A stretch of DNA of 64,000 nucleotides from Promethearchaeota archaeon (GCA_048941065.1 JBHLNY010000001.1:28-64027); one strand, 5' to 3'. Numbered from the stretch's first letter, positions 26,466 through 53,047 are shown. Made by a program: numbers and translations. The notes: a model not told the origin generated them from the letters alone.

Positions 26466-28664
26466 TTATTTACTTTTGAATTTTGAATATAATGCTTTAT
26501 CTAACAATTTACCTATTCTTTGAGCAATTTGCTTACTAACCTCATATCTTTCACCATCAAGCAAATTTCTCTTTGCTTCTGTGGTAGGTTTACTACCTAA
26601 TCTTCTAAACAAGACTTTTTCTGTTATTTCATTCACTATATCTTTAATTTTTTCATAATCAGGTAAATTTATATTGGGATTAAAGCTTTTGATTTTCTCT
26701 ATTGCAAAATGGAAAAATTGACTAATTAGATGGATTGGATCACCTTTTAATTCACTATGAAGTTTAATATTATCCGTAGCGATTTTCATATCTTTTTCTT
26801 GCCAATATAACTGATTTGGATTAATACCTGGACTATTTATTCTCATAAGTGAGCTTGTAATTCTCCGTTCTATCCAATTTAACGTGCTTATTTCTTGTTT
26901 TTCACGTATTTCCTTCTTTTTTTCTTCTTTTTCTTTTTCTTTAGATTCTATAATTTTTTCTACTTTTAATTTACGCTTTTCTTCAAATTTTTCAAACCTT
27001 TTAACAATATCATATCCTATACAGTAAGATATTGGTGAGATTAAATCTGATTTTAACTTTAATGGTAATATCCCCGTATATATTTGACTATTTTTATCTT
27101 TTAATTCCGAAATCCCCTCTTTTAAAGGAATATCCATCAAACGTGCCAATATAAAACCATTAACTATAAATGGTTGATTATCTGCATTAAATACTATAAC
27201 TAATTCTTCTTGAATTTTATTTATTCTTTCAATTATTAATTCTTCTAATTTGACCTTAACCCATTCTTCAGAATCAGTGGTTCCAAAAATCTTTCTTAAA
27301 GCTAAAAGAATTAATGTTTTATCATTTGAAATTTTAAGATATAACTCAATTATCCTGCTAAGTTGTCTTAGTATTTTTGACATTAAATAAAAAAACACAT
27401 CTTTGACTAATTTGTTCATAACATCGTCAAAATCTAACACAAATTGGATTTGAGCATAATTTTTTAACTTTAGTCCATTTATAAATACCTTCTCAATAAC
27501 TTCTTTTTTTCTTTGATCATTCGGATTTATAATATCATGTTTTTTTATATTATATCTAACCATATTTTTCTTTGCTTCCTCAGATACTGCGTTATCTATG
27601 TTCATAAGGTATAAGACATTGTAAATCCCATATCTATTTAACATATAGATTAAATCATTAAAACTACATTCATTAAGACTCTGCAGAAAATAAATGAAAT
27701 CATTTGGATTTGTCTTTAATTGTTTATATAACTCAGACTTTAAAAAATCTAAAATTTTTTGTTCAAATTGGTCATAATTAATCCTTTCTTTTAGTGCTCT
27801 TTCTATTCTTTTTATCAATTCTATTTTTAAAAAGTTTGCTTCCTTAAAGATTTTTAACCCGGGAATAGAAATAGGGAAACGATCCAAATTAAATTCAAAT
27901 ATTTTTCGCTTTATCATCCTAACTGGCATTGCTTGTACCTGAAGTTCTTTATAAGACTTAAATTCGAAGTCTCTTCGGATTTTTTCAATCATTCGTCTTA
28001 ATGTTGCTAACTCAATAAATTTGTCTTCTTTTTCTTGTCGTTCTATTTTTTTTTCTATTTCTAATGATAAATCCTTGAAAGCTGAGCTTTCTTCTAAGAT
28101 TTCTCGTTTAACTTCATCGGTTAATCCTATTAAATCACCAATTAAATCGTAAAAGTAAAAAGGAGGATAATTTAATATGATTTCTAATAATTCTTGCTCA
28201 ATTTGATTTTCTATATCATTCAGTATCTGCTTTCTTTGAAAATCTAAAAGTGTTGATTTTCTTTCTTCGATTAGAAACGATATAAATTTATTTTCTAAAT
28301 CAATTCTCTTATTAAGTATGTTTACTTCTAAATTAAATGAATTTTTTAATAAAGAATCAACCTCTTCTATCAAAATATCTTTTTCTAATTGTTCTAACTT
28401 TTTAGCAGATTCAAATGAAAATTGATTTTGATTTAGATTTTCTTTAACTCTAATACCTAAACTATGATAAATATGAATTGTAGCTGTAGCAACTAATAAA
28501 TCCTTGAAAGTGGATTTTTGACTTGTTAATTCAAATATTTTCTGCTTATCAGCATCTCTCTTAAAATGGGAAATTATTAAATCAACAGTTTGAAAAAATC
28601 TAAATGTGCTTTCTATAGCTGTTGTCTTCCTTTTAATCCCACTAATCATAATTCCTTTATCCAC
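26466..28664 (-). CDS. large orphan protein (732 aa; 727 aa if started at ATG 28649), predicted mostly helical/coiled
   Basis: Long clean ORF. The internal ATG at 28649 forms an ATGA overlap with the stop of the upstream 768-aa gene. There is a Lys/Glu-rich segment KEKEKEEKKKEIREKQE. No enzymatic motifs recognised. Confidence 0.6.
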   Translation of the reverse strand: MDKGIMISGIKRKTTAIESTFRFFQTVDLIISHFKRDADKQKIFELTSQKSTFKDLLVATATIHIYHSLGIRVKENLNQNQFSFESAKKLEQLEKDILIEEVDSLLKNSFNLEVNILNKRIDLENKFISFLIEERKSTLLDFQRKQILNDIENQIEQELLEIILNYPPFYFYDLIGDLIGLTDEVKREILEESSAFKDLSLEIEKKIERQEKEDKFIELATLRRMIEKIRRDFEFKSYKELQVQAMPVRMIKRKIFEFNLDRFPISIPGLKIFKEANFLKIELIKRIERALKERINYDQFEQKILDFLKSELYKQLKTNPNDFIYFLQSLNECSFNDLIYMLNRYGIYNVLYLMNIDNAVSEEAKKNMVRYNIKKHDIINPNDQRKKEVIEKVFINGLKLKNYAQIQFVLDFDDVMNKLVKDVFFYLMSKILRQLSRIIELYLKISNDKTLILLALRKIFGTTDSEEWVKVKLEELIIERINKIQEELVIVFNADNQPFIVNGFILARLMDIPLKEGISELKDKNSQIYTGILPLKLKSDLISPISYCIGYDIVKRFEKFEEKRKLKVEKIIESKEKEKEEKKKEIREKQEISTLNWIERRITSSLMRINSPGINPNQLYWQEKDMKIATDNIKLHSELKGDPIHLISQFFHFAIEKIKSFNPNINLPDYEKIKDIVNEITEKVLFRRLGSKPTTEAKRNLLDGERYEVSKQIAQRIGKLLDKALYSKFKSK

Positions 28665-30952
28665 TCCCTATATACTTCTTTAAAATTATCTGCCAATTCA
28701 AATCTGGAATTATCATGCCAAAACTTGAAGTTTAACACATGAAAAAGCTCTCCCTTAAATAATTCTTTTTCTTCATTTGTTAAAGAGTGTTTCAAGATTA
28801 AATTTATTGGTCTAGGGATTAATTTTGAGAAGTATTTTAGATTTATTTCTTTAATATAATCATAAAAGGTGTCCTCACCATTTATGCTAAAAAAGTTTAT
28901 TGGAACTAGTTCTTCTAATTGATAATTTGAAATATTTATTTCTTGTTTAATTTTTTCTTTAACATAATTTGGAAAAACTGTACTGATATCTATACTAAGA
29001 GCATAGTGTTTATAAAATTCAAGTAGTAAATTCTTTTCTTCAATATTAGATATTTGAGCAATATATATATCTAGAAATTCTAGAAAATGATCAAACTTTT
29101 GTTCTTTCATTTCTCTATCTTCAAAATAACTAATGAAATCATAGAATGTCTCTTCTAAACTCCAATCTTTTTTTTCTTCTAATTTAAAGAATCTTTTTGC
29201 ATAATCATTTACCCATTCTAATATATAAAATTTCCAGACCAAATCAATTCCGCCTATCCGTTTTTCTAAGAATCGATGAAACCTAGTAGCAAAGGTAACT
29301 GGATCTGCTATTTCTTTATCAGGTTCCTCTTTAATAAACCGGTTAATCGTGGTATATCTAAGAATATAGCTTAATAGATAATCCAATTCATATGGAAAAT
29401 TCTTAAATTTCTCTATATGCTCTCGTATAATATTAAAATTGTCATCCATTTGTATTTCTACAAAAGACACTAGATCTCCTATGTTTATTTTTATTTTATT
29501 GAAAAAAATTTCAATACTTGAATTAATTAATCTTTTAAATTCTCTTATTACATTTTCTTCATTAAATTTAAGATCCCTTAATAAAACCATTGGGTTAATT
29601 TCAATTTGGTTAAATATATACTCTTTAAATTGTTCTATTAAGTTCTGCCCAAAAGTTTTCGCTGGTTTTTGTTCTTTTTCAAACTTCTGCTTTAAAATAT
29701 TTGTTAAATTAATAAGTAAGGATTTTAACCGACGACGAGAAAGATATCTTGGAATTGAGTCTTTAACTAAATTAATACTAATCTTAATAATTTCCGAAAA
29801 ATAATTGAATACAGAACTTAACTCTATTGCTCTTAAATTTTCTTTCGGAATTATTGATTGATTAATCAAAGTAATAGCTAAATTACATATATCTTCAAAA
29901 TTTTCACTTTCAAATTTTGCTTTATTCGCAATAAATTGTTTATATTTATTTAATAATCCAGATAAGTTCCCAGTCTCTCCAGTAGTCAGAAAAGAATTAG
30001 AATATTCAATAAATTTATTCATATATCTTTCTAAATCAATTAAAATTTTGGCTATAAAGGAAATTAACCATTTTGCTGAGCATTGTTCTTTAACGTCTTT
30101 TAATTTTTCTTTAATATAGTTGATAATAAATAATACAATTTTATCTTGAGATTCATCTATTGTTCCAGTATTTGCTAAGTTTATTAGATTTGCTCCAAGT
30201 TTTAATGTGTTATCCACAATAAAATTAGCACTGGGTTCCGATATGGAATATTTGAGATGATCTATGGCTTCCTGCCCCTCAAAAGCGGTTTTTATTCTCT
30301 CAAACTTAGAATTATAGAAATTAATCTCAAATGGTCTTTTATACCATGATATCTCAACATCTGACTTGATCTTTCCATAAGTATTTAACAATTCTTTTTC
30401 TGTAGGAAGTGAAACACTTAATCCAATTAATTTCTTATTCCATTTATCTTCCACTAATTCTCCGAAGAGTCTTTTGCTAAATCTACTAGCAAATCTTTTA
30501 TATATCAGTTCTCTATCGTGACTTTTTAATTCAGGTCGATCTGTAAATTCTTCTACTTCAAAAAATAATTTACTTATATTATTTATGGATTCATTAGATT
30601 TATGCACATCTAAATATCCTGTATCTGGTTTCAATGCCAGTAATAAACTTTCGCATTCCTTATATTTGCCAGGTATGAAGATCATTGATTTTGGGTAAAT
30701 ATTAAGTTGAGCACTTTTTTCATCAAAATTATATAACTCAAATTCGATACTAAATACTTCTGATCCCGTATAATCTCTTAAAATTGCATTGTACATTCTT
30801 AAAAATTTTATTACTTCTTGGGAAAGAATATTCACTTTTTGTCTTGTTAATTTTCCAGGACCAATTACATCTCCGACAATGAGGTCACTTGGAGAAGAAT
30901 ATCCAAAAATTAATGAAAACTGATAATTAATTGATTCTCTTGTAGTTATCAT
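28646..30952 (-). CDS. large orphan protein (768 aa) with longin-like N-terminal ~115 aa and long helical remainder
   Basis: Long clean ORF. The N-terminus reads as beta-beta-alpha-beta-beta-beta-alpha by eye (YQFSLIFGY / LIVGDVIG / QKVNILSQEVIKFLRMYNAIL / EVFSIEFE / AQLNIYPK / MIFIPG / ECESLLLAL). No catalytic motifs were seen. Confidence 0.6.
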   Translation of the reverse strand: MITTRESINYQFSLIFGYSSPSDLIVGDVIGPGKLTRQKVNILSQEVIKFLRMYNAILRDYTGSEVFSIEFELYNFDEKSAQLNIYPKSMIFIPGKYKECESLLLALKPDTGYLDVHKSNESINNISKLFFEVEEFTDRPELKSHDRELIYKRFASRFSKRLFGELVEDKWNKKLIGLSVSLPTEKELLNTYGKIKSDVEISWYKRPFEINFYNSKFERIKTAFEGQEAIDHLKYSISEPSANFIVDNTLKLGANLINLANTGTIDESQDKIVLFIINYIKEKLKDVKEQCSAKWLISFIAKILIDLERYMNKFIEYSNSFLTTGETGNLSGLLNKYKQFIANKAKFESENFEDICNLAITLINQSIIPKENLRAIELSSVFNYFSEIIKISINLVKDSIPRYLSRRRLKSLLINLTNILKQKFEKEQKPAKTFGQNLIEQFKEYIFNQIEINPMVLLRDLKFNEENVIREFKRLINSSIEIFFNKIKINIGDLVSFVEIQMDDNFNIIREHIEKFKNFPYELDYLLSYILRYTTINRFIKEEPDKEIADPVTFATRFHRFLEKRIGGIDLVWKFYILEWVNDYAKRFFKLEEKKDWSLEETFYDFISYFEDREMKEQKFDHFLEFLDIYIAQISNIEEKNLLLEFYKHYALSIDISTVFPNYVKEKIKQEINISNYQLEELVPINFFSINGEDTFYDYIKEINLKYFSKLIPRPINLILKHSLTNEEKELFKGELFHVLNFKFWHDNSRFELADNFKEVYREWIKEL

Positions 30953-31093
30953 AATCCAATTTAATTACAAATCTTATTTCTTCGATTAATAAATCATAAT
31001 GGTTATAATTCTTACTGAAAATGTAAAAAATTTAGCTATTGTTTTTAATATTTTTAAGTTTATATAATACTAAATAAATTAATTTTATAAAAA

Positions 31094-31103
31094 TTTATAT
31101 ATA
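31094..31103 (+). promoter_or_regulatory. TATA-box-like element TTTATATATA upstream of the coiled-coil ORF
   Basis: It lies in the divergent intergenic region. The reading frame of the downstream gene opens at 31121, about 20-30 nt downstream. Confidence 0.3.
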
Positions 31104-31270
31104 GTATTCTGAAAAAGTAGATAAAGGGAAAAAAACTGTCAGAAATACTTCTTAATCAACTTATACAGAAATTAGACGAGGTAATTTTAGGAAGAAGGGA
31201 TATTTTATCTGAGATTGAAAAATTAAAGGATTCAATAGAAAAAGTTCGAGATATCGGAAAAAAAGAATCA

Positions 31271-31807
31271 ATGATACAAATAACCGATGCCGTAAATGAA
31301 ATTAACAGTTTTATGTCAAACTCTACTAGTGTTTTATTTGATCTTAACAATAATATAAAGAACTTACAGAGTTTAGTTATTTCTCTCTTTAATCTTTTTG
31401 ATACAATTTTAAATAAATTAAATGCATTGAATATTAATAAAATTCATGAATCTTTTGCTACAGGCGAAGCTAAAATTTTATCATCTACTAGATATGAGAA
31501 CCATCTTTCTAATCCTATTAGATCTCCGTTTGAACAAAAATCAGCAGATTCTAAACACAAAATAAATATAAGTGGAGAATATGATTTTAATTTAATTATG
31601 TCTGCTGCAAAATCAAATAATCCTGCAGTGGAAATCGCTATGATGCTTGAAAAATTAAGAATTAAGTTACAAAAAGAAAATCCATTAAACCCTATATTAT
31701 TTGAATTAAGTATGGAATCAAGAAGACTTCAATCTTTAGGAAATATACCACTTAATGAGCATAATCTGCTTATCTTAATAGAGAAAATACAAAAATGGAT
31801 CGAATAA
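31271..31807 (+). CDS. coiled-coil protein, hypothetical (frame open upstream to 31121)
   Basis: 178 aa from the first ATG. The 50 in-frame codons upstream (IKGKKLSEILLNQLIQKLDEVILGRRDILSEIEKLKDSIEKVRDIGKKES) look like genuine coiled coil but contain no ATG/GTG/TTG. Confidence 0.5.
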   Translation: MIQITDAVNEINSFMSNSTSVLFDLNNNIKNLQSLVISLFNLFDTILNKLNALNINKIHESFATGEAKILSSTRYENHLSNPIRSPFEQKSADSKHKINISGEYDFNLIMSAAKSNNPAVEIAMMLEKLRIKLQKENPLNPILFELSMESRRLQSLGNIPLNEHNLLILIEKIQKWIE

Positions 31808-31930
31808 AAATTAAACATTATAAATTTTTATTTCAGTTAAATTTATTCTTAAAGAAAATAAATAAATAAATAGAATTTAATTAATTCTATATGAGAATAA
31901 TCTATATAATTAAAAGATTAATTCAAAAGG

Positions 31931-32344
31931 TGTGTACTTATACAATTTGGATCAGATTTAGGTATTAACCATGAAGATATCGAGAAAATAAGTCCTCAAA
32001 TCACATTTATAACTTCTAATGCAGATATAGAAGCAATTGCACTCGTAAGTGTTGAGGGATATCAGATTGCTTTCTCTGCGTTGCCCCAATACCATGTTGA
32101 TGGTGATCAATTTTGTGGACTTGCTAGTGCTTTATTAATGACAGGAAGATCAACAATTCAGACTTTATTTCAAGAAGATATCAGCGAAATAATTGTAAGG
32201 GCTGAAAATGGATATATTGTAGTTACTAATGCAGGACGTTTAGTGATTGTATGTGCTGGAACTATTATAGATACCCTAATGAAAACCGTAAAAGTAATGC
32301 GAATCGCAGCAAATAATCTCTATAAGATTTTTGAGGGTCGTTAA
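31931..32344 (+). CDS. Roadblock/LC7 (MglB-like) domain protein
   Basis: The core VEGYQIAFSALPQYHVDGDQFCGLASALLMTGRSTIQTLF...IIVRAENGYIVVTNAGRLVIVCAG is a typical Robl_LC7 pattern. I extended the start from the track's TTG 32081 to in-frame GTG 31931 to recover a full ~137-aa domain. Confidence 0.75.
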   Translation, partial: CVLIQFGSDLGINHEDIEKISPQITFITSNADIEAIALVSVEGYQIAFSALPQYHVDGDQFCGLASALLMTGRSTIQTLFQEDISEIIVRAENGYIVVTNAGRLVIVCAGTIIDTLMKTVKVMRIAANNLYKIFEGR

Positions 32345-32690
32345 AGGTTAAAGTGTCTTTATTTCACCTTTTTACATTTCTGTAAAATGTCTCTATTTTT
32401 TAAACAGTAATTTTTGGAATAATTAACTTTTTATTTATTAAAGGATATACAAACTATTAATCATTTTATTTATAATATGGTTTAATTTTATGGCAACTGG
32501 AAAATATAATTTTTGGCAGTGGCCTTGGTCTCAGTAGTAAGACTCATCACATTGGCTTAAACCATATTTTATTTTTCTCTTTTACTTATTTTCCATTTCT
32601 TTTAATTAGTAAATTCTTTCCTACAAATGTGCATTAATAATATTGATATCCAATATAGTAATGAGACACATAAAGTAAATTAATAAAAAA

Positions 32691-34106
32691 TTGGTTATAG
32701 AAATGGTTAATTATTATAATTCAAGAATTCTGTTGCAACCAAATGAAATACCTAAGGAATGGGTAAATATTTTACCAGACTTACCCTCTCCTATGACGCC
32801 CTTAGTGAATCCAATGGATGGGAAACCAGCACCACCAGAACTAGCATTAGCAATATTTCCAAAAGAATGTGTTATGCAAGAGATATCTCAAGAGCCATTA
32901 ATTCCTATCCCTAAGGATTTAAGGGAAATTTTCGCAAGGACTTATAGACCAACTCCTCTCCATCGGGCTTTAGGATTAGAGAAAGAATTGGGAATAGAAG
33001 GTGATGACGTAAAAATTTTTTATAAAAATGAATCTGTCTCACCTACGGGATCTCATAAACCAAATACGGCAATAACGCAAGCCTACTATGCAAAAAAAGA
33101 TGGTCTTGAAGAGTTGGTCACTGAAACTGGAGCGGGACAATGGGGCTCAGGACTTGCTTACGGATGTAATTTGTTTAATTTAAAATGTACAGTATATATG
33201 GTAAGAGTAAGTTTTTTACAGAAACCTGGTAGAAAGATTTTAATGAAAACCTTTAATGCAGATGTTCATGCTAGTCCTTCTAGATTTACTGAATCTGGTA
33301 AGACTTTTTTGAAAGAAGATCCAGAACATCCTGGAAGTTTAGGAATAGCTATTTCTGAAGCAGTTGAACATAGTCTTAGAAGTGACAAAATAAGATACTC
33401 TTTGGGAAGTGTTGTAAATTTTGTACTTTTACATCAGACAATTATAGGACAGGAAACGAAAGTTCAATTAGCGAAAGCTGGTGTTGAAAAACCTGACATA
33501 ATAATTGGTTGTATGGGAGGAGGCTCTAACTTTGCCGGATTAATGATTCCTTTTGTAAGAGATAAACTCCATGGTATCCTTCCAGACGTAGAAATTATTG
33601 GAGTGGAACCAAGAGCCTGTCCAAGTGTTTGTAAAGGTGAATATCGATGGGATTTTGGAGATACTTCAATGAAAGGACCGATTGTAAAAATGCACACTTT
33701 AGGCCATACGTTTGTACCCAGTCCGATTCACGCAGGAGGATTAAGATATCATGGGATGGCACCTATAATTTCGATCTTATATAAAAATAAAGTCATTTTA
33801 GCATCAATGCATCATCAAACTGAGATTATTAAATCAGGTCTTTTATTTGCCAATGCTGAAGGAATTCTCCCTGCCCCTGAAACTGCACATGCCGTAAAAG
33901 AAGCAATAGATCAAGCATTAAAAGCCAAAAATGATCAAGAAAAAAAGACTATTGTCTTCAATTTTAGTGGTCATGGCTTTTTTGATTTATTAGCGTATAA
34001 ATTATATATGACAGGAGATTTAGAAGATTACGAATTACCAACCGAAGAAATCCAAAAAGCACTATCATCAGAAGAAATGCCAAAAATTAATGAATCTCAA
34101 TTTTAA
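32691..34106 (+). CDS. trpB: tryptophan synthase beta-chain-like PLP enzyme, TrpB2 type
   Basis: The PLP-lysine motif is PTGSHKPNTA. It has the GGGSNFAG loop and the TrpB2-type N-terminal extension (EIPKEWVNILPDLP). It starts at TTG 32691 or ATG 32703. Confidence 0.9.
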   Translation: MVIEMVNYYNSRILLQPNEIPKEWVNILPDLPSPMTPLVNPMDGKPAPPELALAIFPKECVMQEISQEPLIPIPKDLREIFARTYRPTPLHRALGLEKELGIEGDDVKIFYKNESVSPTGSHKPNTAITQAYYAKKDGLEELVTETGAGQWGSGLAYGCNLFNLKCTVYMVRVSFLQKPGRKILMKTFNADVHASPSRFTESGKTFLKEDPEHPGSLGIAISEAVEHSLRSDKIRYSLGSVVNFVLLHQTIIGQETKVQLAKAGVEKPDIIIGCMGGGSNFAGLMIPFVRDKLHGILPDVEIIGVEPRACPSVCKGEYRWDFGDTSMKGPIVKMHTLGHTFVPSPIHAGGLRYHGMAPIISILYKNKVILASMHHQTEIIKSGLLFANAEGILPAPETAHAVKEAIDQALKAKNDQEKKTIVFNFSGHGFFDLLAYKLYMTGDLEDYELPTEEIQKALSSEEMPKINESQF

Positions 34107-34143
34107 ATTATAGATTTCTATTTTAAATTATAGATTTCTATTA

Positions 34144-34153
34144 TTTTTTTTTT
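34144..34153 (+). terminator. oligo-T tract (T10) downstream of trpB2
   Basis: Archaeal transcription typically terminates at oligo-T. The tract lies 38 nt after the stop codon. Confidence 0.4.
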
Positions 34154-34236
34154 AAAATAATGTTATTTTACTTTTTAAGAAAATCTTAAAATGAAAGAAT
34201 CCTTTCAATATTCAAATTTTAAGAGATTGGTAATTA

Positions 34237-35244: not shown

Positions 35245-35283
35245 CAATTTACCATAAGTTTTTCAATAAAAGTATTTTAACTA

Positions 35284-35793: not shown

Positions 35794-35809
35794 TAAAAAT
35801 ATAAAGGCA

Positions 35810-36247: not shown

Positions 36248-36317
36248 GTTATTATTATAAATAATTATTATTATAAAAATCATTATATATAATGATAAAG
36301 AAAACAACAGACGGAAA

Positions 36318-39113: not shown

Positions 39114-39149
39114 TATTGTAATAATATTTAAAAATTTAGCTGTATATCT

Positions 39150-40993: not shown

Positions 40994-40995
40994 AA

Positions 40996-41436: not shown

Positions 41437-41461
41437 AATTGTAGTTTCACTATAAGTATCT

Positions 41462-42531: not shown

Positions 42532-42658
42532 TAAAATAAAAACCTCTAATTTAACAATTAGATTTTATAACAATGCTTCAAGAATTGAAAGAATAAATAT
42601 AATAAAAAGATTTTATTATAATTAAACATTTAAATTGATATCTTTTTGAAAATTTTAA

Positions 42659-43957: not shown

Positions 43958-43984
43958 TAAATTATATGTTAATATTGATTTTAT

Positions 43985-44428
43985 ATGGTTGTTCTGAAAT
44001 TAGAAAATTTTGATCAAATTGGAATAGTAGTAAAAGATATTAAAAAATCTTCTAAATATTTTGAGGGGTTATTAAATTTTAAACAAAAATTAAATCTAGT
44101 GGAACAAACTAATACTGTATTTTATAAGGGAAAAGAAGCTACATTTAAAATGAAAAAAATCATGCAAAATTTCGGGGGAAAACAATTTGAAATTATTGAA
44201 TTAATAGAATCAAAAGGGGATCATTTATATTCAGAATTTCTTAAAGAGGGGTATGAAGGGCTACATCATTTAGGCACTTATATAAAAAACCCAAATCAAT
44301 TTATTGAGCATTTCGAAACTGAATATAACATTAGTGTTATTCAAACTGGTAAATTTGGGAAAGTAAGATTTGATTATTTAAATACCAAAGAAATCCTTGG
44401 TTTTTATTTAGAATTAATTTCTTTTTAA
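43985..44428 (+). CDS. VOC/glyoxalase-family protein (methylmalonyl-CoA epimerase-like)
   Basis: It has FDQIGIVVKDIKKSSKYFEGLL and a later HHLG motif. The size is 147 aa. Confidence 0.7.
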   Translation: MVVLKLENFDQIGIVVKDIKKSSKYFEGLLNFKQKLNLVEQTNTVFYKGKEATFKMKKIMQNFGGKQFEIIELIESKGDHLYSEFLKEGYEGLHHLGTYIKNPNQFIEHFETEYNISVIQTGKFGKVRFDYLNTKEILGFYLELISF

Positions 44429-44498
44429 TCTTCCAATTTTCTTTTACATATTTGAAGTTTTACCAAAATTTATTTTTCATTTTTAATAACTTTTCAAT

Positions 44499-46235
44499 AT
44501 GTCTAAACAAACATTAAATGGTGGGGATTTAGTCGTTAAATGCCTTTTAAAAGAAGGTATTTCCAAAATATTTGGAATTGTTGGTGGGGAATTATCAAGA
44601 ATATATGATGCTATAGAACGATGGGGACGTGAAGAAGGTATAGATACTGTAATGGTAAGACATGAACAGGGAGCAGGACATATGGCTGATGCATGGGCAA
44701 GAGCAACTGGGGAAATTGGTGTGTGTATGGGTACTGCTGGACCGGGGGTAACTCATTTAGTACCTGCAATTGCTGCAGCAAATGCCGATTCGATTCCCTT
44801 GTTAGTTATTGGCGCTCAAATTGCTAGAATGTTCGATGATACAGGAATTTTACAAGGTGGACTTGATCAAATGGCTTTAATGAAACCAATAACAAAATTA
44901 CAAATTTCTGTAGAACATCCATATGAAATACCACATGCGATACAAAAATGCATCAAAACGGCTATGTCTGGAAGGAGAGGCCCAGTTTTTCTTGAATTGA
45001 GAGAAACAGCATTAGTGAGAAATGCCAGTGAAGAAGATATGAAGAAAATCATAGATCCAGAAAAATATAGGCCTAATGATCGACCTGCGGGTAATCCAGA
45101 AGTTATTAAAAGGGCTGTTAATGTTTTAAGAGCAGCAAAAAAGCCTATAATCATAGCAGGAGGGGGAGTAAATGCTTCAGAAGGTTATAATGATTTACAA
45201 AAATTGTCTGAAACTTACAAGATGCCTACAGCAACATCTTTTAACGGTATAGGTACCATTGGAAAAGATAAAAAAACATTTATTGGATCCAAATTAACCG
45301 CTAGCGCCTATAGAAGGGCTGCATTTGAAGCTGATGTAGTTTTATCCCTTGGATGTAGATGGGGGTATCCTTTACTTTATGGTGCTTTACCAATTTGGAA
45401 TCAAGATCAAAAAATAATTCAAGTTGATATCGATCCAAAAGAAATAGGTAAAAATAGACCGGTTGAAGTAAGTATCATTGGAGATGCTAAAGTTGTTATC
45501 CAACAACTATTAATGGAGATGGAAGAAAATCTTCCTAAAGAAAAAATTACTGAATGGTCTGATTGGAATGACTATTTACAAGAAATCAGAAAAAATGATG
45601 ATTTACAAATTCAGAAAATGTTAAAATCAGAAAAATTACCTATGAAACCACATAGACTCGCATTTGAAGTGTTAGATTTTATCCCCCCTGATACTCAAAT
45701 AGTAATTGATGGTGGGGATATATTTGTATTCACATTGGATCTTATCAATCATAAAAATCGTCCTCCCAGAAGTTTTTATCGTTCTGTATCAATGGGTCAC
45801 TTAGGAACAGGAATCCCTTATGCTATTGGTGCTAAAATGGCAAAACCAGATAAGCTTGTAGTATGTATAACTGGAGATGGAAGCTTTATGTTTACCGTAC
45901 AAGAATTAGAAACTGCTGTAAGATTAAATCTCCCCATAATCGTAGTAATTGCAAATAATTGTGCTTGGGGCATGATAAAAAGTTATCAAAGAAATAACCT
46001 CCTAAAAAGGTATTGTGATGTTGATTTTCCACTTATTAATTACGCCGAAATTGCGAAAGGTTTTGGATGTTATGCTGAGAAAGTATTAAAACCAGAAGAT
46101 ATTAAACCTGCTTTACAACGTGCTATCAATTCTAAAAAACCAGCTGTCCTTGATGTAGATATTGCTTTTGAAACGCCCCCAGCAATGAAGTTACTTGGTC
46201 TCTATAAGAAGAATAAAGGATTATTTGGAAATTAA
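44499..46235 (+). CDS. thiamine-diphosphate enzyme, acetolactate synthase large-subunit-like
   Basis: The N-terminal Pyr domain is VRHEQGAGHMADAWARATGEIGVCMGTAGPGVTHLVPAIAAANADSIPLLVIGAQ. The C-terminal ThDP motif is GDGSFMF...NN. Confidence 0.9.
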   Translation: MSKQTLNGGDLVVKCLLKEGISKIFGIVGGELSRIYDAIERWGREEGIDTVMVRHEQGAGHMADAWARATGEIGVCMGTAGPGVTHLVPAIAAANADSIPLLVIGAQIARMFDDTGILQGGLDQMALMKPITKLQISVEHPYEIPHAIQKCIKTAMSGRRGPVFLELRETALVRNASEEDMKKIIDPEKYRPNDRPAGNPEVIKRAVNVLRAAKKPIIIAGGGVNASEGYNDLQKLSETYKMPTATSFNGIGTIGKDKKTFIGSKLTASAYRRAAFEADVVLSLGCRWGYPLLYGALPIWNQDQKIIQVDIDPKEIGKNRPVEVSIIGDAKVVIQQLLMEMEENLPKEKITEWSDWNDYLQEIRKNDDLQIQKMLKSEKLPMKPHRLAFEVLDFIPPDTQIVIDGGDIFVFTLDLINHKNRPPRSFYRSVSMGHLGTGIPYAIGAKMAKPDKLVVCITGDGSFMFTVQELETAVRLNLPIIVVIANNCAWGMIKSYQRNNLLKRYCDVDFPLINYAEIAKGFGCYAEKVLKPEDIKPALQRAINSKKPAVLDVDIAFETPPAMKLLGLYKKNKGLFGN

Positions 46236-46279
46236 GAAATAGTATTTTAGATTAATATACTTAATTTGAGGGAAATTAT

Positions 46280-47077
46280 ATGGAGAATGAAAATTTTTTA
46301 GAAGGGAAAGTAGCTCTAGTTACAGGAGCGGGTGCTGGATTTGGTCGGGAAATGGCCATTGCTTTTGCAAGTAAAGGAGCAAATTTAGTATTAAACGATA
46401 TCAATTTAAAAAGTATAAAAGAAACTCGTGATATTGTTCTAAAATCTTATGATGTAGATATATTATTAGCACAAGCAGATATTTCTGAAGTTGAAGCGGT
46501 AAATCTCATGAGTAAAAATGTTTTTGAGAAATTCAAAAACGTTTTTTTATTAGTGAATAATGCTGGAATAAGAGGAGGTACTTCTTCTCTTAAGACTAAA
46601 ATGGAAGACTATAAAAGAGTTATGGATGTAAATTTAATGGGTAGCTGGAATGTAGCAAAAATCTTTAGCAAAAGGATGAAAAAGCAGAAATTTAAACCAA
46701 TTGCGGGAAAGATTATTAATATCACATCATGTGCGGGAACTGAATGTGGCCTAAATCCATTTATTGGAATATATAGCGTAAGTAAAGCAGCTCTAATTGC
46801 CTTTACCAAATTATGGGCACTTGAATTAGGTTCTAGAAACATCACAGTTAATGCAATTTGTCCAGGGATCTTTCTTACTCCAATATACGATAATGATCCA
46901 AACCTAATAAGGGAGTGGATAAAATTGAGAAATATAAAACTTCCCATAAATAGAATTGGAGAAGCTAAACAAGTTGCGGATGTTGCCTTATTTTTAGCTT
47001 CCTCTGCTGCAGATTACATTACAGGGCAGAATATCATTTTAGACGGTGGAATGACTATCAGTATAAATAAATTGTAA
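46280..47077 (+). CDS. short-chain dehydrogenase/reductase (SDR)
   Basis: It has the cofactor-binding motif TGAGAGFG, then NNAG, and the catalytic motif YSVSK. Confidence 0.9.
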   Translation: MENENFLEGKVALVTGAGAGFGREMAIAFASKGANLVLNDINLKSIKETRDIVLKSYDVDILLAQADISEVEAVNLMSKNVFEKFKNVFLLVNNAGIRGGTSSLKTKMEDYKRVMDVNLMGSWNVAKIFSKRMKKQKFKPIAGKIINITSCAGTECGLNPFIGIYSVSKAALIAFTKLWALELGSRNITVNAICPGIFLTPIYDNDPNLIREWIKLRNIKLPINRIGEAKQVADVALFLASSAADYITGQNIILDGGMTISINKL

Positions 47078-47117
47078 TATAGAATTCTGATTAATATAAC
47101 TTAAATTTTCTCTTTTC

Positions 47118-47126
47118 TTTTTTTTT
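47118..47126 (+). terminator. oligo-T tract (T9) downstream of SDR gene
   Basis: It lies 41 nt after the stop, in a convergent intergenic region. Confidence 0.35.
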
Positions 47127-47375
47127 GGATTCAACACCTTAGTATTCATTTTCGCTTTCTTATTAATCCATATTTCTTAAATATTTTCTTTAAGATTTTT
47201 AACGAAAACAAGGTTTTTTTCTTATTCTAAAGATATTAATCTTTTTTTAACTCTTTTTCCAATTTAGAAATCTAAAAGGATATTAATATATTAACTTTAT
47301 CCAAATATTAAATTCAGAGAATGATAAGTATTAACAAAAAAGTAATTTAAAAAAGAAAGAAATCTGAATTTTTGA

Positions 47376-47960
47376 TTATTTTCCACGACCTTTGTTTGCA
47401 CTAATGCTAGGTCGGGTTTTTTCAGATCCCCATCCTTTTCTATGTAAACCTCTTGCTCTCTTTCCTGCAGAAGTTAATCCCCGAGTCACTCTTTTTGTAT
47501 TCTGAGGTTCAGAAATCCAATTTATTTTTGGATCTGATTTGATTACTGGATGGTGAGGATCAACTAATATAACCTCGTAATACCAGTGTTTTCCATCAGA
47601 GTAGACTTTATAACTATTCAAAACTTCCATATTCGGGTATTTACGTTGAACACGTTCTTCTGCAATCCATTGCAGATTTTTACCAGTAGTATATTTTGAA
47701 ACACCCATCGCTCGAGGTTTTCTACCTCGTTTAGGTCGTGTTTTGTGCATTCCACCCTTTCTTATCCTTGCTCTTATTATAGCATATCCTTGTTTTGCTT
47801 TATAGCCTAATGTTCTTGCACGATGAATTTTAGTAGGTTTTTCCACTCTCTGAATAGATTTACCTTTCCGATATTCAATTCCACGATTCCAATGGGGTGT
47901 TTTATATCCTTTTTTATGTTCCTCAAAAGTATCTTTTACATAACTATATCCAGACTTCAA
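47376..47960 (-). CDS. rpl15e: 50S ribosomal protein eL15
   Basis: 194 aa and highly basic. ARTLGYKAKQGYAIIRARIRKGG and the overall L15e pattern are present. Confidence 0.95.
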   Translation of the reverse strand: MKSGYSYVKDTFEEHKKGYKTPHWNRGIEYRKGKSIQRVEKPTKIHRARTLGYKAKQGYAIIRARIRKGGMHKTRPKRGRKPRAMGVSKYTTGKNLQWIAEERVQRKYPNMEVLNSYKVYSDGKHWYYEVILVDPHHPVIKSDPKINWISEPQNTKRVTRGLTSAGKRARGLHRKGWGSEKTRPSISANKGRGK

Positions 47961-48158
47961 CTTTCAAAACACTCTTGATTTAATATAACTTAAAAAATTC
48001 ATGAAAATTAATTAATTTTTTTATTTCTCTATCCTATTAAAATTTATTTTGTTAGGATTTTATATCTTTATTTAACTAATGTAAGAATAATTTTAATACT
48101 TTAAACATATTATTTTAATCACCACATGCTTAAAGGTATAGTTATCAGAGGAAATTAA

Positions 48159-48647
48159 TTGTCAGATAAAGAAATAAAAAGAAATAAACCACATAAAAAA
48201 GCAAAAATAAAAGATAATAATGGGTTAGAAATTTCATATGATAAAAATGAATTAGCTGAGTATTTTCCCCATTTAATATCAGAAGTCTCTATAAGTAAAA
48301 AGGCATTAAAAATTGATTCAGTAAAATTTAACATCCAAAATTCAAATGATTATTATCCAGAAGAACTATATAACCCAAAAGCAATTGATTTTATAAGAAG
48401 ATGTACTAATGATGAAGAAGCCATTGAGATCTTAAATTATCTATTAAGAAGAAAAGAATTATCTAATGATGAATATAAATTACTTAAAAGCCAAATATTA
48501 CAAAAAGAGGGTTTAACAAATTTAATCGAGGAGCATGGAGGCTTCAAAAAGCCGGGCTATTATGAAAGAAAGTTTAGAAATTTTACCCAACAGAAAAAAA
48601 ATGAAAAACAAAGAACGACCGAGAGAAGTAAAACCAAAAAAAATTAA
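48159..48647 (+). CDS. conserved archaeal hypothetical protein (DUF2095-like)
   Basis: TTG start. NPKAIDFIRRCTNDEEAIEILNYLLRRKELSNDEYKLLKSQI...GGFKKPGYYERKF resembles DUF2095. This recollection was not verified. Confidence 0.45.
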   Translation: MSDKEIKRNKPHKKAKIKDNNGLEISYDKNELAEYFPHLISEVSISKKALKIDSVKFNIQNSNDYYPEELYNPKAIDFIRRCTNDEEAIEILNYLLRRKELSNDEYKLLKSQILQKEGLTNLIEEHGGFKKPGYYERKFRNFTQQKKNEKQRTTERSKTKKN

Positions 48648-48692
48648 ATTAGGCTAAGAACTATTAGAATTATAACGTTAATTTCAGATTAT

Positions 48693-48774
48693 GAGAAGAA
48701 AAATGATGATCTTATGACAAACAGAACTACTGCTCATAGTGATGATTCTTGTCGCCCCAATCTGATTTTTTCTC
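48693..48774 (+). ncRNA. candidate C/D box sRNA (2'-O-methylation guide)
   Basis: The C box is ATGATGA (48703-48709). A degenerate D' box CAGA (48722-48725) follows after 12 nt. The C' box is GTGATGA (48739-48745) and the D box is CTGA (48762-48765). The flanks GAGAAGAAAA / TTTTTTCTC can form a terminal stem. It sits in a convergent intergenic gap. Confidence 0.4.
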
Positions 48775-48795
48775 TGACTTCTTAAATTAATTCTT

Positions 48796-49050
48796 TTAAA
48801 AATCGTTTTCTATTTCTTTTTTGAATTTAATTCCTTTTTCTGTTAAATAATGTTCTTCTTTAATCTTTTTAATCAGTTTTAAATCTAATAAAACCGGTAT
48901 TCTTCCCTTAATACATGCAATTGGCAAACCAGAAAACAACTTAATTGTTTCATAATTCTTTGCTCCTTTATCAATTGCTAGTAATATCTCAATCCCCATA
49001 TATCCTAAGAGATATTTTAAGTCATCATAAGATTCTACTTCATTAGACAT
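48796..49050 (-). CDS. small winged-helix protein
   Basis: 84 aa. GIEILLAIDKGAKNYETIKLFSGLPIACIKGRIPVLLDLKLIKKIKEEHYLTEKG has a wHTH pattern. The gene is immediately downstream of the longin-like gene. Confidence 0.5.
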   Translation of the reverse strand: MSNEVESYDDLKYLLGYMGIEILLAIDKGAKNYETIKLFSGLPIACIKGRIPVLLDLKLIKKIKEEHYLTEKGIKFKKEIENDF

Positions 49051-49088
49051 GCTTCATCCTGAATTGAAAAATTTTTTTGAATTATCTT

Positions 49089-50219
49089 TTAAGTATTTTT
49101 TTTAGATTCTTTTGGTAATAATTTTCTCATCCATTCTGGAAAGGCAGTAGTTATGCGTAGATTTGTTTTTAAAACAACATACCTCTCATTATTGTAATTT
49201 AATTCTTCGATGATATCATACTCCTTCAAATATTCTATATTTTCCATGAGATAATCAAGAGACTTTTTAGATACTAATTTGGGTAATTCATCTCTTGAAA
49301 TTAACCCATTACGCAATTCAGAAAGAATATTATACTTTTTAGAATCTGCCATTATTTGAAATAATCTATAGGAATCTTTTTTTAACTCTTCCTCTTCCTT
49401 TTTTTCATATTCACTGAAATATTCCTGAACTTTTGGAAGTAATAAATCAATCAATTCTGGTTTGTCATCGATATACTCTATAACACTATCAGGTGGAATT
49501 CTTTCAGCTTTTATTTCTTTTAATAAAAGTACATACTTTTCGACTAAACCAATTTGATTTATAATGATAATTTGCTTCTCATCTAATGTACCGATTATTT
49601 CTTCAAAAACTTTATGAGGAGAATTTTCAATAAACCATTCTCTTAGTTGTTCTAGTTCTACAGGACCTTTTGAGAGTTTTTCTAAAGTTTTATATATATG
49701 ATTATCACTTATTAGAATTGCTATCTTTTCTTCTTCAGTTTTTTCTCGTGTCTCATCCATTACTGCCCTGTACAAGTTCTTTACTCCAGCTTTAATTAAG
49801 CCATTGTTTTTCAGAATTAATTCTACATCTTCCTCATGATATTCTTTCTCGTTAATATAAAAACCTGTAAAAATCTCCTCATTTGATTGAAACCTCTCTG
49901 AAAAGTCTGTACATAGATTTGCTATAATTTCCTCATTTGCTGGTTTAATTTGCTGCTCAAGAATTACTGAGAACATTAGCATTTCTTTATTACCTCGAGC
50001 CCAATCTGAATGAATTTCAAAATAATAATTCAATGATTTTAAATTTTCAAAAGAATGTGTGAAAAAGCCTTCATTAAATTGCTGGTCCATAATATTTGCT
50101 ATTTTGACCTCTAATTCCTTCGCTAATATATCCTTCGGGTATGAATAAAATACTAAAGGTCCAATTTTGCGGTGAAAATATGATAAGGCTACGGTTGTTT
50201 TCAAATAACGAATCTCCAC
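49089..50219 (-). CDS. hypothetical protein: longin-like N-terminal domain plus two winged-helix-like modules
   Basis: The N-terminus VALSYFHRKIGPLVFYSYPKD...FFTHSF...LNYYFEIHSDWARGNKEMLMFSVIL reads as beta-beta-alpha-beta-beta-beta-alpha. The C-terminal half has two HTH-plus-wing-like segments. Confidence 0.5.
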   Translation of the reverse strand: MEIRYLKTTVALSYFHRKIGPLVFYSYPKDILAKELEVKIANIMDQQFNEGFFTHSFENLKSLNYYFEIHSDWARGNKEMLMFSVILEQQIKPANEEIIANLCTDFSERFQSNEEIFTGFYINEKEYHEEDVELILKNNGLIKAGVKNLYRAVMDETREKTEEEKIAILISDNHIYKTLEKLSKGPVELEQLREWFIENSPHKVFEEIIGTLDEKQIIIINQIGLVEKYVLLLKEIKAERIPPDSVIEYIDDKPELIDLLLPKVQEYFSEYEKKEEEELKKDSYRLFQIMADSKKYNILSELRNGLISRDELPKLVSKKSLDYLMENIEYLKEYDIIEELNYNNERYVVLKTNLRITTAFPEWMRKLLPKESKKNT

Positions 50220-50423
50220 AGATATTTTATCTTTTTACAAACAATACTGTTATTTTTAGGTATGATATCTTAAAATAAATTAATGATTAAAGATTATATA
50301 TTCTTAAAGATAAATAAATTTATCTTATTTAAACATCTATTAACAATAGTTTAGTATTAAAATGAATCAATTTATTATATTGATTGATTTTCTAAATTAT
50401 AAAGGAAATTTCTACTTAACATT

Positions 50424-51167
50424 ATGATCAATAATAGAATTAAATTAATTGGATTTGATTTAGACGATTGTCTTTTTGATTCAACCGGACTTTCTGACAG
50501 AGCTAGAATTAAGGGAATTGATGCTATGATTAATTTAGGATTAGATATTGATAGAGATGGAGCAATTGTAAAAATCCAAGAGATTGTAAAAGAATATGGA
50601 TCAAACTTTTCTAAACATTATAATTACTTTATTCGAAGATTAAATGAATTTGAAAACTATAGAATCTCCAGCAATGTTAAATATAAATATATAGCTGCTG
50701 CGGTAATAGCATACCATCAAGAAAAAATTGATTCTATAAAATTATATGAAGATGTAAAACCTTGCTTGAAAAGATTAAGAAAAATGGGGATTAAAACGGC
50801 AATAATAAGTGATGGTATCCCCATAAAACAATATGAAAAAATTTTAAGACTTAAAATTGATAAGTTAATAGACTTGGTTGTAATCTCAGATGAAATCGGC
50901 ATTAAAAAACCAAACCCTAAATTATTTAATTACTGTTTAAAAAAATTTGGACTTAAGGGTTCAGATACAATTTATATAGGAGATCGAATTGATAAAGATA
51001 TTATTCCTGCTCGTTTAAATCATATTTTCAGTGTCTATATTCATCGGGGAGGTAAATATGATACTTATAAACTAGATAAAAATAATTCTACTAGATATAA
51101 AGCTGATTATGAAATATCAAATTTAAATGAAATATTTGGGATATTAATAGAAATTAATAAAAAATAG
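50424..51167 (+). CDS. HAD-superfamily hydrolase
   Basis: Motif I is FDLDDCLFDS, motif II is ISDG and motif IV is GDRIDKDI. Confidence 0.85.
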   Translation: MINNRIKLIGFDLDDCLFDSTGLSDRARIKGIDAMINLGLDIDRDGAIVKIQEIVKEYGSNFSKHYNYFIRRLNEFENYRISSNVKYKYIAAAVIAYHQEKIDSIKLYEDVKPCLKRLRKMGIKTAIISDGIPIKQYEKILRLKIDKLIDLVVISDEIGIKKPNPKLFNYCLKKFGLKGSDTIYIGDRIDKDIIPARLNHIFSVYIHRGGKYDTYKLDKNNSTRYKADYEISNLNEIFGILIEINKK

Positions 51168-51189
51168 ATTTTTAAATAAAAGTAAGATT

Positions 51190-52008
51190 ATGAAAATTGC
51201 TTGTATTCAACCCAAAATATTTCAAGATAGAAGAAACTGTTATTACGAGGTAGAAGATCTATTAAAAGTTTTATTAGAAGAAACTAATAAATGTGATGTC
51301 ATATGCTTACCAGAAAGATGGATTCCAGTTTATAGCGATTCTTCTAAAAACTTTCAAAAAGAAAGAGGAGATGATTATTCATTTATCAAGTATTTAGCAA
51401 ATGAATACGGTATAAATGTTTTATCAGGAGGAATATGGGAAAAACGTGATAATCCAAAAAAATTGGTAATTACATGCTATTTTTTTAATGAGAATGGTGA
51501 AGAAGTAGGGCGTCAGGATAAAATTCATCTCTATTCTTATGAACGAAAGCAATTTGAACCTGGAAATGAATTAAATATATTTAAATTAAAAAATTTACAT
51601 AATTTTGCAATTCTCATTTGCTTTGATATGGCTTTTTTTGAAACTCCTAGATTGGCTGCTGAGAATGGTGCTGACTTTTTACTCTCTCCTACTCAGATAA
51701 GACAGGAAGGAATGGATAATTGGAATACTTATTTGAAAGCACGTTCTCTTGAAAATAGAATACCAGTTGCAGCTTGTAATACTTTTGGGACTTTTTTTAG
51801 AAAAAAATTTTTAGGGAATAGTAAAATAATCTCCTTTATTAAAGGAAATATTTCACCAGCTAAGCTTAAGATAGTTGAAGGACCTAATGATTCGAATGGA
51901 TATATCTTTGATGATATTGATTTAGATTTTCCAAGAAAATTAAGAAAAATTCGACTAAAAGAAAAAATTGAGAAAAATAAAATTATAGTGAAAAATGTAA
52001 ATAGCTAA
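51190..52008 (+). CDS. carbon-nitrogen hydrolase (nitrilase superfamily)
   Basis: The Glu-Lys-Cys triad context is CLPERW ... K ... ILICFDMAF. Confidence 0.85.
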   Translation: MKIACIQPKIFQDRRNCYYEVEDLLKVLLEETNKCDVICLPERWIPVYSDSSKNFQKERGDDYSFIKYLANEYGINVLSGGIWEKRDNPKKLVITCYFFNENGEEVGRQDKIHLYSYERKQFEPGNELNIFKLKNLHNFAILICFDMAFFETPRLAAENGADFLLSPTQIRQEGMDNWNTYLKARSLENRIPVAACNTFGTFFRKKFLGNSKIISFIKGNISPAKLKIVEGPNDSNGYIFDDIDLDFPRKLRKIRLKEKIEKNKIIVKNVNS

Positions 52009-52105
52009 GTTGCTTAATTTATATACGATTCTAAAAATTATTAATTTTTGTTATCTTATACAACATTGTTTTAATGATGCAACTAAGTTTTAGAGTTGTT
52101 TAAAT

Positions 52106-53047
52106 TTGGATATGAAGATTATGCTATGCGGGCTTGAAGATGCAGGAAAAACGTCAATTTTACTAGTCTTAGATAAGAAATTTAGTCTCTTAACTTCAGT
52201 TGCCCCTACTATAAAGGCTAAGAGAACTTCACATACTAATAAACTATTAGGTATTTCAATCACACGTTGGGATTTAGGTGGTCAAAAAAGTTTTAGAAAG
52301 ATATATATTGACAATAAAAGTAAATATTTTACCGAAATGCGTTCAATCTTTTACGTAATTGATATACAAAGTAAAGATAAATTTACTGAAGCTCTATCTT
52401 ATCTTAAAGATATTATAAATATTATTTCACATAACCCTCCTGAAAATTTTCAACTATTAATCCTTTTTCATAAATATGATCCAGATATAAAAAATAAAAA
52501 AGAAATTTTAGATAATTTAAGCTTTTTAGAGAAAAAAATAAATTCACTAATTAAAAAATTAAATTTCTCTGTTTATAGAACTTCGATCTATGATGATTCT
52601 TCTTTACTAAAAGCATTTTCAGATGGAGTATTTACTGCTACTGAGAAATCAAAATTGCTCCAATCTTTATTAAGAGATTACATGAGTAAAACATATACTA
52701 GTTCTACTCTACTTTTGGATCAAAATTGTTTTATAATCGCAAGTAGAGCTACTGATGATGCATACCAGGGAATATGCGAAGCAATTGCTCCCAGATTAAC
52801 AAATGCATTAGAAAAATTAGAAGAATGGGATATTGATACAAAAGATATTATCACAAATATAGAATTTCCTCAAAATAATGTAGAAGATTCTAGAGAGGGC
52901 ATAATTTTTTTAAGAAAATTAGAAATAAACAATGATAGATTATATCTTATTGCACTTTGCTTAAACAAAAGGATACAGAAAAAATCCTATGATTATCTAC
53001 CAATATTAGCTAAAAATCTAAAGAATTTATTAGAAAGTTTTGAATAA
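52106..53047 (+). CDS. Rag/Gtr1-family small GTPase with C-terminal roadblock-like domain
   Basis: G1 is GLEDAGKTS and G3 is WDLGGQ. G4 is HKYD (Rag-type HKxD rather than NKxD). The G5 region YRTSIYDDSSLLKAFS parallels RagA TSIWDETLYKAWS. The C-terminal ~120 aa aligns by eye with the Rag C-terminal roadblock domain. It starts at TTG 52106 or ATG 52112. Confidence 0.85.
   Translation: MDMKIMLCGLEDAGKTSILLVLDKKFSLLTSVAPTIKAKRTSHTNKLLGISITRWDLGGQKSFRKIYIDNKSKYFTEMRSIFYVIDIQSKDKFTEALSYLKDIINIISHNPPENFQLLILFHKYDPDIKNKKEILDNLSFLEKKINSLIKKLNFSVYRTSIYDDSSLLKAFSDGVFTATEKSKLLQSLLRDYMSKTYTSSTLLLDQNCFIIASRATDDAYQGICEAIAPRLTNALEKLEEWDIDTKDIITNIEFPQNNVEDSREGIIFLRKLEINNDRLYLIALCLNKRIQKKSYDYLPILAKNLKNLLESFE

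Follow-up and report, generated by a model that had tools for sequence, protein, structure and literature searches.

A stretch of 64,000 nucleotides from a Promethearchaeota archaeon (GCA_048941065.1, JBHLNY010000001.1:28-64027), referred to here as the window, raises the question of whether genes for a Rag/Gtr1-type GTPase, a stand-alone roadblock protein, two proteins credited with longin-like N-termini and small winged-helix proteins, all lying within 27 kb, belong to a single archaeal counterpart of the eukaryotic Rag-Ragulator-GATOR machinery, as an earlier note on this DNA had suggested. The answer favoured here, with moderate confidence, is that the five genes are three separately conserved units embedded in slowly reshuffled Lokiarchaeales synteny and not one co-inherited Rag-Ragulator-GATOR-like system; the same syntenic region also carries genes for SMC, an Orc1-like protein, L15e, RNase P subunits, PyrI and NFACT. 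The first unit is a very conserved roadblock gene with a weak non-AUG start, divergent from an overlapping pair of genes for 768- and 732-aa proteins. The second is probably a bicistron of a 376-aa longin-winged-helix protein and an 84-aa winged-helix protein, always located beside a gene for a HAD hydrolase. The third is one of about 11 strong Rag-like paralogs, found downstream of the HAD and CN hydrolase genes, probably ancestral at this site and repeatedly lost from it. The caution of the earlier note that proximity here is suggestive but not an operon was appropriate. Coordinates are collected in Table 1.

The window has a GC content of about 26% and covers most of a 65-kb contig (C11) of a metagenome-assembled genome (MAG) of 3.5 Mb, in 410 contigs and 89% complete, which is low in GC and Lokiarchaeal (Asgard); its relatives are Lokiarchaeal ('Promethearchaeota') MAGs. 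This genome, designated G000, contains 34 matches to the Gtr1_RagA model, of which about 11 are strong, as well as 12 matches to Robl_LC7. When roadblock genes were placed at random on the real contigs and strong-Rag/roadblock pairs within 21 kb were counted, 0.69 pairs were expected against the 1 observed (P = 0.51), and Rag-roadblock proximity in this genome is no more than chance. Such a result, together with the high copy numbers of GTPase and roadblock genes, the failed longin assignment for the 768-aa protein (see below) and the fact that winged helices are common in archaeal proteins, is what would be seen if common Asgard domain types had come together by pure coincidence, with no functional relation among the genes. 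That reading is very improbable, because longin-GTPase fusions occur in the same longin family (two of them in this genome), an orthologous Rag gene occupies the same site in two families, and the adjacencies of the roadblock gene with the 768/732 pair and of the longin-winged-helix gene with the 84-aa gene are conserved, so that the pairwise relations at least are not random.

Relatives of the locus were compared in 80 loci around homologs of the 376-aa protein (family f1, one locus per species, 60–87% identity), on which 31 window proteins were mapped, and in loci of a sister family, f2 (loci of relatives are designated L001-L081, and L088 is G293:C145). An invariant run was found in f1, consisting of SMC, Orc1-like, the Rag gene where present, CN hydrolase and HAD, followed by the longin gene, the 84-aa winged-helix gene and DUF2095. 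Wherever an f1 locus extends far enough on that side, and in 6/6 sister-family loci, the HAD gene adjoins the longin gene; the 84-aa gene adjoins the longin gene in 76/80 loci. The Rag gene behaves differently: of 65 f1 species loci, it lies between the Orc1-like and CN hydrolase genes in 30 and is cleanly absent from 35 (leaving a gap of 103–283 bp), and the species without Rag at the site keep the longin-winged-helix gene at 60–67% identity. Five genomes with a Rag-less site were checked; four gave only paralog-level best matches (36–40% identity), and the fifth (G005) has an ortholog about 415 kb from the longin gene.

The relative positions of the units also change. A block of about 22 kb (~25300-47100, from the 240-aa gene to the SDR gene) exists in two orientations among relatives, the window having orientation A. 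Both orientations appear by turns within at least four separate clades of the tree, so the inversion has recurred; in some cases L15e keeps its position. In sister genus g10 the roadblock gene lies 3.6 kb from the longin gene and the 768/732 pair 16 kb away, with HAD co-directional with longin. In genus g11 the longin, 84-aa winged-helix, roadblock and 240-aa genes are in tandem and the 768/732 pair is 128 kb off, beside SMC. In genus g13 (G293) the longin and HAD genes are transcribed divergently, and a Rag-like gene comes after HAD. The neighbours HAD, CN hydrolase, L15e, Pop5, Rpp30, PyrI and PALP persist near the f2 longin gene about as often as the roadblock gene and the 768/732 pair do, by a plain count over only 3–4 sister genera and not by a formal test; taking f1 and f2 together, SMC too is retained in the region at about the frequency of the candidates. 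The persistence is regional and not specific to the candidates. The genes lying between the candidates are ordinary (TrpB-like, PyrI, NFACT, GDPD, RNase P Pop5 and Rpp30, a DUF39-type protein, an ALS-like enzyme, SDR, L15e, HAD hydrolase and CN hydrolase).

The Rag-like gene of G293 bears on the history of the site. In a maximum-likelihood tree that included paralogs from several genomes, the G293 gene, the G005 gene and all the site orthologs formed one clade with an ultrafast bootstrap support (UFBoot) of 99. A late insertion of Rag in one sub-clade, which had been considered, was withdrawn given this ortholog at the equivalent G293 site. Because an ortholog is located at the equivalent site in the sister family, the gene phylogeny suggests that Rag at this site is ancestral to the order and has been repeatedly lost or moved; the alternative would be that this one site gained orthologous genes several times. 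The G293 gene itself (L088, G293:C145 8780-9724) contains one in-frame TAA and is either a decaying gene or the product of an assembly error.

The same comparison bears on the possibility that the genes do form a true module, an archaeal proto-GATOR/Ragulator in which the longin-winged-helix protein would act as the cognate GTPase-activating protein (GAP) for the neighbouring Rag, the roadblock protein would form a dimeric platform, perhaps together with the 768/732 pair, and proximity would be selected without an operon. Several points argue for it and weigh against the reading in three units. In orientation B (e.g., L001) all five candidates are found within 12 kb; the roadblock, longin-winged-helix and 768/732 genes share one region across two families, and a tandem of longin, 84-aa winged-helix and roadblock genes on one strand is found in G170 and G242, both of one sister genus; in two families a Rag ortholog neighbours the longin and HAD genes, and in G293 it does so at the equivalent site; and the candidate genes stay 1–25 kb apart across order-level divergence. 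These points of persistence fit some selection for proximity. Moreover, the housekeeping comparison is a count over 3–4 sister-family genera only, the AlphaFold2 model of the 376-aa protein is of moderate quality (mean predicted local distance difference test score, pLDDT, of 68), and the GAP role of its Arg75, discussed below, is inferred from fold similarity, motif conservation and the positions of NPRL2 R78 and FLCN R164. The module would further be consistent with the NPRL2/FLCN-like fold carrying an invariant GP and Arg and with the fusion of the longin family to GTPases in 21/66 relatives. However, Rag is absent from the site in 35/65 species and has no ortholog in 4/5 of the genomes checked while the longin-winged-helix and roadblock genes stay highly conserved, the G293 Rag frame has an in-frame stop, housekeeping genes are kept in the region about equally often, GTPase and roadblock genes show no genome-wide proximity, the relative positions of the units change freely through recurrent inversions, and no general operon linkage is known from the literature (PMC10933270). 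A true module is thus considered rather unlikely. The co-occurrence across genomes by which the earlier note proposed to judge the set gives a mixed picture: the shared region, the Rag ortholog of G293 and the longin-GTPase fusions speak for a relation, and the missing Rag genes and the equally retained housekeeping genes against it. Four of the five proposed genes are real components of the types named, whereas the longin of the 768-aa protein was not borne out and a single nutrient-sensing module is not favoured.

The first of the three units contains the roadblock gene. The encoded protein matches Robl_LC7 (E 9e-9; 35.4 bits, cut-off 23; profile positions 9–88 of 91) and its best PDB match is 7f8m (E 7e-6), which bears out the stand-alone roadblock protein that had been proposed, with coordinates corrected to 31940-32344. 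The frame is open from 31922 and shows no in-frame ATG, GTG or TTG upstream of 32081. The position of the start was given by 20 orthologs (L001, L007, L017, L019, L021, L023, L026-L029, L033, L034, L045, L066, L069, L076-L078, L080 and L081), in which the homologous start codon aligns. Distant relatives have TTG at this position, most orthologs ATT, and the window and two others ATA; the codon lies 7 nt downstream of a conserved AGGTG. The resulting length of 134 aa agrees with the 134-aa gene call in the relative L001. Two other starts were rejected: TTG 32081, the start of the open reading frame (ORF) as listed, gives a truncated product missing 47 codons, the same number lost by ORF finders limited to ATG, GTG and TTG, and GTG 31931 is out of frame. 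Retention of a weak start codon by so many species suggests that the roadblock protein is deliberately translated at a low or regulated level. The protein is 84–95% identical within f1 and 53–61% identical in f2.

The 768- and 732-aa genes were always paired and beside the roadblock gene in 20 f1 loci, the latter being divergent and about 0.4 kb away, and within f1 the pair is always accompanied by 92-aa and 240-aa genes. The length of the 768-aa protein is constant in the family (764–768 aa, with 62–90% identity), its partner reaches about 800 aa in some relatives, and orthologs of both are found in f2 at 27–36% identity. Neither protein gave a match in Pfam or PDB sequence searches. The longin-like N-terminus proposed for the 768-aa protein was neither borne out nor disproved: residues 1–265 are modelled by AlphaFold2 at a pLDDT of only 26–52, a Foldseek search of the model against PDB folds returned nothing better than E 0.14, and an hhalign comparison of this N-terminus and of the 732-aa protein with longin and roadblock profiles was negative but uninformative, since the control (the Rag C-terminus against roadblock) was negative too and the alignments were shallow. 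On the other hand, residues ~270–700 form a confident helical bundle (pLDDT ~90). With no counterpart among PDB folds, this core of some 430 residues may represent a new fold family. The accompanying 240-aa gene carries a weak PD-(D/E)XK nuclease signature and is duplicated in the sister-family genome G218. The ORF between the 768-aa and roadblock genes is an orphan: a tblastn search of 81 related loci and a comparison with 25 same-genus genomes both came up empty, and the ORF is not part of the conserved set.

The central protein of the second unit, of 376 aa, was recognized through its predicted structure. No Pfam family, including the NPR2, NPR3 and Folliculin models, was matched at E <= 1, and PDB sequence searches with the protein or the full family profile found no match. 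A profile of the longin domain alone placed human NPRL2 second and third best in the PDB at E ~1, with the alignment falling on the NPRL2 GP motif. The AlphaFold2 model, built from 44 homologs, reaches a pLDDT of ~83 in the N-terminal domain, whose topology (bb-a-bbb-a) is that of a longin and which is followed by two winged helices. Foldseek matches of the model below E 1e-3 (3e-4 to 9e-4) were NPRL2 chains (9o5d_D, 9v0j_A, 7t3a_B, 7t3b_B and 9o5a_H) as well as one from the FLCN-FNIP2 complex (6ulg_N), whereas NPRL3 chains lay at 2e-3 to 1e-2; the next matches, at E 2e-3 to 6e-3, comprised NPRL3 7t3b_C, FLCN-complex 8dhb_J, the yeast SEA-complex chains 8adl_S and 9h4q_T and a Lokiarchaeal longin, 8yqg_B. 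Of the two longin-like N-termini in the earlier note, this one is thus supported by topology and by fold matches and the one in the 768-aa protein is not. The only invariant columns among 66 diverse relatives, and again among 44 trimmed domains, are G20, P21 and R75; G20-P21 form a GP loop between strands 1 and 2, and R75 is located in the loop between strands 4 and 5 of the model. This location may correspond to that of NPRL2 R78 and FLCN R164.

The longin-domain search returned 336 cluster representatives. Fusions are frequent among the 66 relatives, with Arf/Ras/Gtr1 GTPase domains in 21 and PAS or histidine-kinase domains in 20. Identity of the 376-aa protein is 60–95% across >100 Lokiarchaeal MAGs, and full-length longin-winged-helix orthologs are present in 68/68 sampled family genomes and 7/7 sister-family genomes; several further Asgard families gave weaker matches (E 1e-6 to 1e-18) that are probably longin-only. 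The true start of the gene is probably TTG 50204, giving 371 aa, and the listed GTG start wrong, because the gene call in the database gives 371 aa, the start used in relatives corresponds to codon 6 and GTGGAG precedes the TTG. Four further sequences of the same genome are related to this protein. They are a longin-GTPase-PAS-histidine kinase fusion with PP in place of GP (C241:4860-5219, 1127-aa frame), a longin-GTPase fusion (C225:4944-5186, 352-aa frame), a 42%-identical paralog cut by the contig end, in which ARA replaces ARG (C37:15042-15551), and a 372-aa protein whose C-terminal half resembles the longin-winged-helix winged helices and which is encoded 7.7 kb from another Rag-like gene (C331:4510-5148).

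The small winged-helix gene lies 38 nt downstream of the longin gene on the same strand, and the two genes are probably a bicistronic operon. Among the small winged-helix proteins of the earlier note this one is a borderline case, with an HTH_45 match (E 3e-5, 24.2 bits) just below the cut-off of 25.5.

Two functions can be considered for the longin-winged-helix protein. It is probably a GTPase regulator, a GAP, judged by analogy; such a role is plausible because members of the longin family frequently come fused to small GTPase domains. The protein would regulate a small GTPase through the invariant GP loop and Arg75, in the manner of the arginine-finger GAP longins NPRL2 and FLCN, and the signal could be passed on through the winged helices by binding of DNA or of a partner. 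Where present, the neighbouring Rag would be a plausible, non-obligatory substrate, other paralogs serving in species without it; it would not be the sole substrate because many species keep the longin protein without Rag. Conversely, the protein could be mainly a transcription factor, with ArsR-like winged helices binding DNA and the longin domain sensing a ligand or partner, which would control the divergent HAD and CN hydrolase genes, and Rag where present, with no GAP role. Its C-terminal half does resemble the ArsR/SmtB/HlyU repressors (Foldseek E ~1e-2, template modelling (TM) score on the target 0.54–0.69, pLDDT 60–86), a homolog is labelled an ArsR-family regulator by one database source, the layout is that of a regulator and its targets (a 204-bp gap to the divergent HAD gene, kept in f1 and two sister-family genera), and a second small winged-helix gene lies in the same operon. 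Nevertheless, the sole invariant residues of the wider family are in the longin domain, at what are probably the positions used by GAP longins, relatives are fused to GTPase domains and not to DNA-binding domains only, and HAD is co-directional in sister genus g10; a role mainly in transcription is judged quite unlikely. The transcription-factor and GTPase-coupled roles are not mutually exclusive.

The third unit is a Rag-type GTPase, as the earlier note had proposed, with a Gtr1_RagA match of E 5e-28 (98.5 bits, cut-off 22; the Arf model scores lower, 69.3 bits). Its best PDB sequence matches are the 'GTP-binding protein' entries 8yl2 and 8zla, which are probably archaeal, followed by human RagA and yeast Gtr1; a literature search found no paper for the PDB codes 8YL2, 8ZLA and 8YQG. 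The motifs are G1 GLEDAGKT at residue 9, G3 DLGGQ at 56 and a Rag-type G4 HKYD at 122 (HKxD replacing NKxD), and ATG 52112 is an alternative start. The 97-aa C-terminal part had no Pfam match, the 8yl2 alignment extends into it to residue 233, and an hhalign comparison with the roadblock profile was negative and lacked a working positive control. No second GTPase match was found on the 65-kb contig, hence there is no adjacent Rag heterodimer partner there; partners elsewhere in the genome are possible. The Rag gene is separated from the longin gene by the HAD and CN hydrolase genes, on the same strand as Rag and with gaps of 22 and 97 nt; these hydrolases are context and not domain types of the Rag pathway.

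A bolder proposal is that the longin-winged-helix protein and the Rag two genes away would be a cognate GAP-GTPase pair dating from the Lokiarchaeales ancestor, a prokaryotic forerunner of GATOR1-Rag whose output would be gene regulation through the winged helices and not TOR, with the roadblock protein, well conserved and weakly translated, as a Ragulator-like platform. This is unlikely, and if true, the repeated loss of the neighbouring Rag would mean that other Rag paralogs took over.

Table 1. Positions and assignments of the genes discussed, numbered from the first nucleotide of the window
Feature	Position	Strand	Assignment and remarks
240-aa gene	25311-26033	+	PDDEXK_1 E 1.4e-3, below cut-off
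732-aa gene	26466-28664	-	No Pfam/PDB match; overlaps 768-aa gene
768-aa gene	28646-30952	-	No Pfam/PDB match; helical core residues ~270-700
Orphan coiled-coil-like ORF	31121-31807	+	178 aa from ATG 31271; between 768-aa and roadblock genes
Stand-alone Roadblock/LC7 protein	31940-32344	+	134 aa; Robl_LC7; ATA start
84-aa winged-helix protein	48796-49050	-	HTH_45
NPRL2/FLCN-type longin with two winged helices	49089-50219	-	376 aa; longin residues ~9-112, winged helices ~162-231 and ~276-350 (AlphaFold2, Foldseek)
HAD-superfamily hydrolase	50424-51167	+	Pfam Hydrolase/HAD_2 E 7e-23
CN hydrolase	51190-52008	+	Pfam CN_hydrolase E 3e-30
RagGtr-family small GTPase	52106-53047	+	313 aa; G domain and 97-aa C-terminal domain; Gtr1_RagA

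NPRL2-like longins, Rag-like GTPases and roadblock proteins have already been described in Asgard archaea, and counting eukaryote-like domain types in 27 kb of an Asgard genome says little, because paralogs abound and unrelated housekeeping genes are kept together just as well by regional synteny. The window Rag resembles RagA/Gtr1 and the Asgard Rag-like GTPases (PMC10933270) in its best score with Gtr1_RagA, the HKxD G4 motif and the architecture of a GTPase with a C-terminal domain; unlike RagA/Gtr1, it is one of about 11 strong paralogs without an adjacent second Rag. The 134-aa roadblock protein is, like MglB and LAMTOR2, a bona fide Robl_LC7 protein of similar size. Unlike in MglA/MglB and Ragulator, its gene is not beside a GTPase gene (the nearest is 20 kb away) and its conserved neighbour is the helical 768/732 pair; no LAMTOR1-like anchor was identified either. 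In Prometheoarchaeum, small GTPase genes as a rule do not share operons with genes for roadblock or longin proteins (Tran et al., 2024, PMC10933270), a finding in agreement with the picture obtained from the window.

Regarding the longin-winged-helix protein, its N-terminal domain shares the longin fold of NPRL2/NPRL3 (GATOR1), FLCN/FNIP and SMCR8/C9orf72, the eukaryotic longin GAP complexes for Rag and Arf. As in NPRL2, a GP loop is located between strands 1 and 2, where it aligns with the NPRL2 GP, and as in NPRL2/3 the longin is followed by C-terminal domains of winged-helix type. It differs from the NPRL2 and FLCN complexes by having no DENN domain, DEPDC5-like partner or TINI/INT region, from NPRL2/3 by winged helices that resemble ArsR-type DNA binders, from GATOR1 in that no obvious second longin subunit is encoded beside it (the 42%-identical paralog lies elsewhere in the genome), and from NPRL2, NPRL3 and FLCN by the lack of any significant Pfam or PDB sequence match (best profile E ~1). 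According to Liu et al. (bioRxiv 10.1101/2020.10.19.343400), Asgard archaea have no known TOR kinase pathway.

Among the longins already reported from Asgard archaea, this one belongs to the family named 'NPRL2-like longins' by Liu et al. (bioRxiv 10.1101/2020.10.19.343400), and shares a GP motif and a conserved Arg with these and with the GP-motif/Arg-finger longins (PMC12290439); the GTPase and two-component fusions described in both texts match those found among its relatives. The texts of these two papers, supplementary tables aside, do not contain the architecture of a longin with two winged helices, nor do they mention its near-universal presence in Lokiarchaeales at 60–95% identity, the operon with the 84-aa winged-helix gene or the HAD/Rag neighbourhood. 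According to PMC12290439, the GTPase partners of the Asgard GP-motif/Arg-finger longins are unknown, and two papers raise the question of which GTPases the NPRL2-like and GP-motif longins act on (bioRxiv 10.1101/2020.10.19.343400; PMC12290439). Gene order is usually no clue to GTPase pairing (PMC10933270); the present locus offers one concrete and testable longin-Rag pairing, in which a near-universal Lokiarchaeal longin-winged-helix protein is encoded beside an orthologous RagGtr GTPase in two families and species naturally devoid of that Rag provide the comparison.

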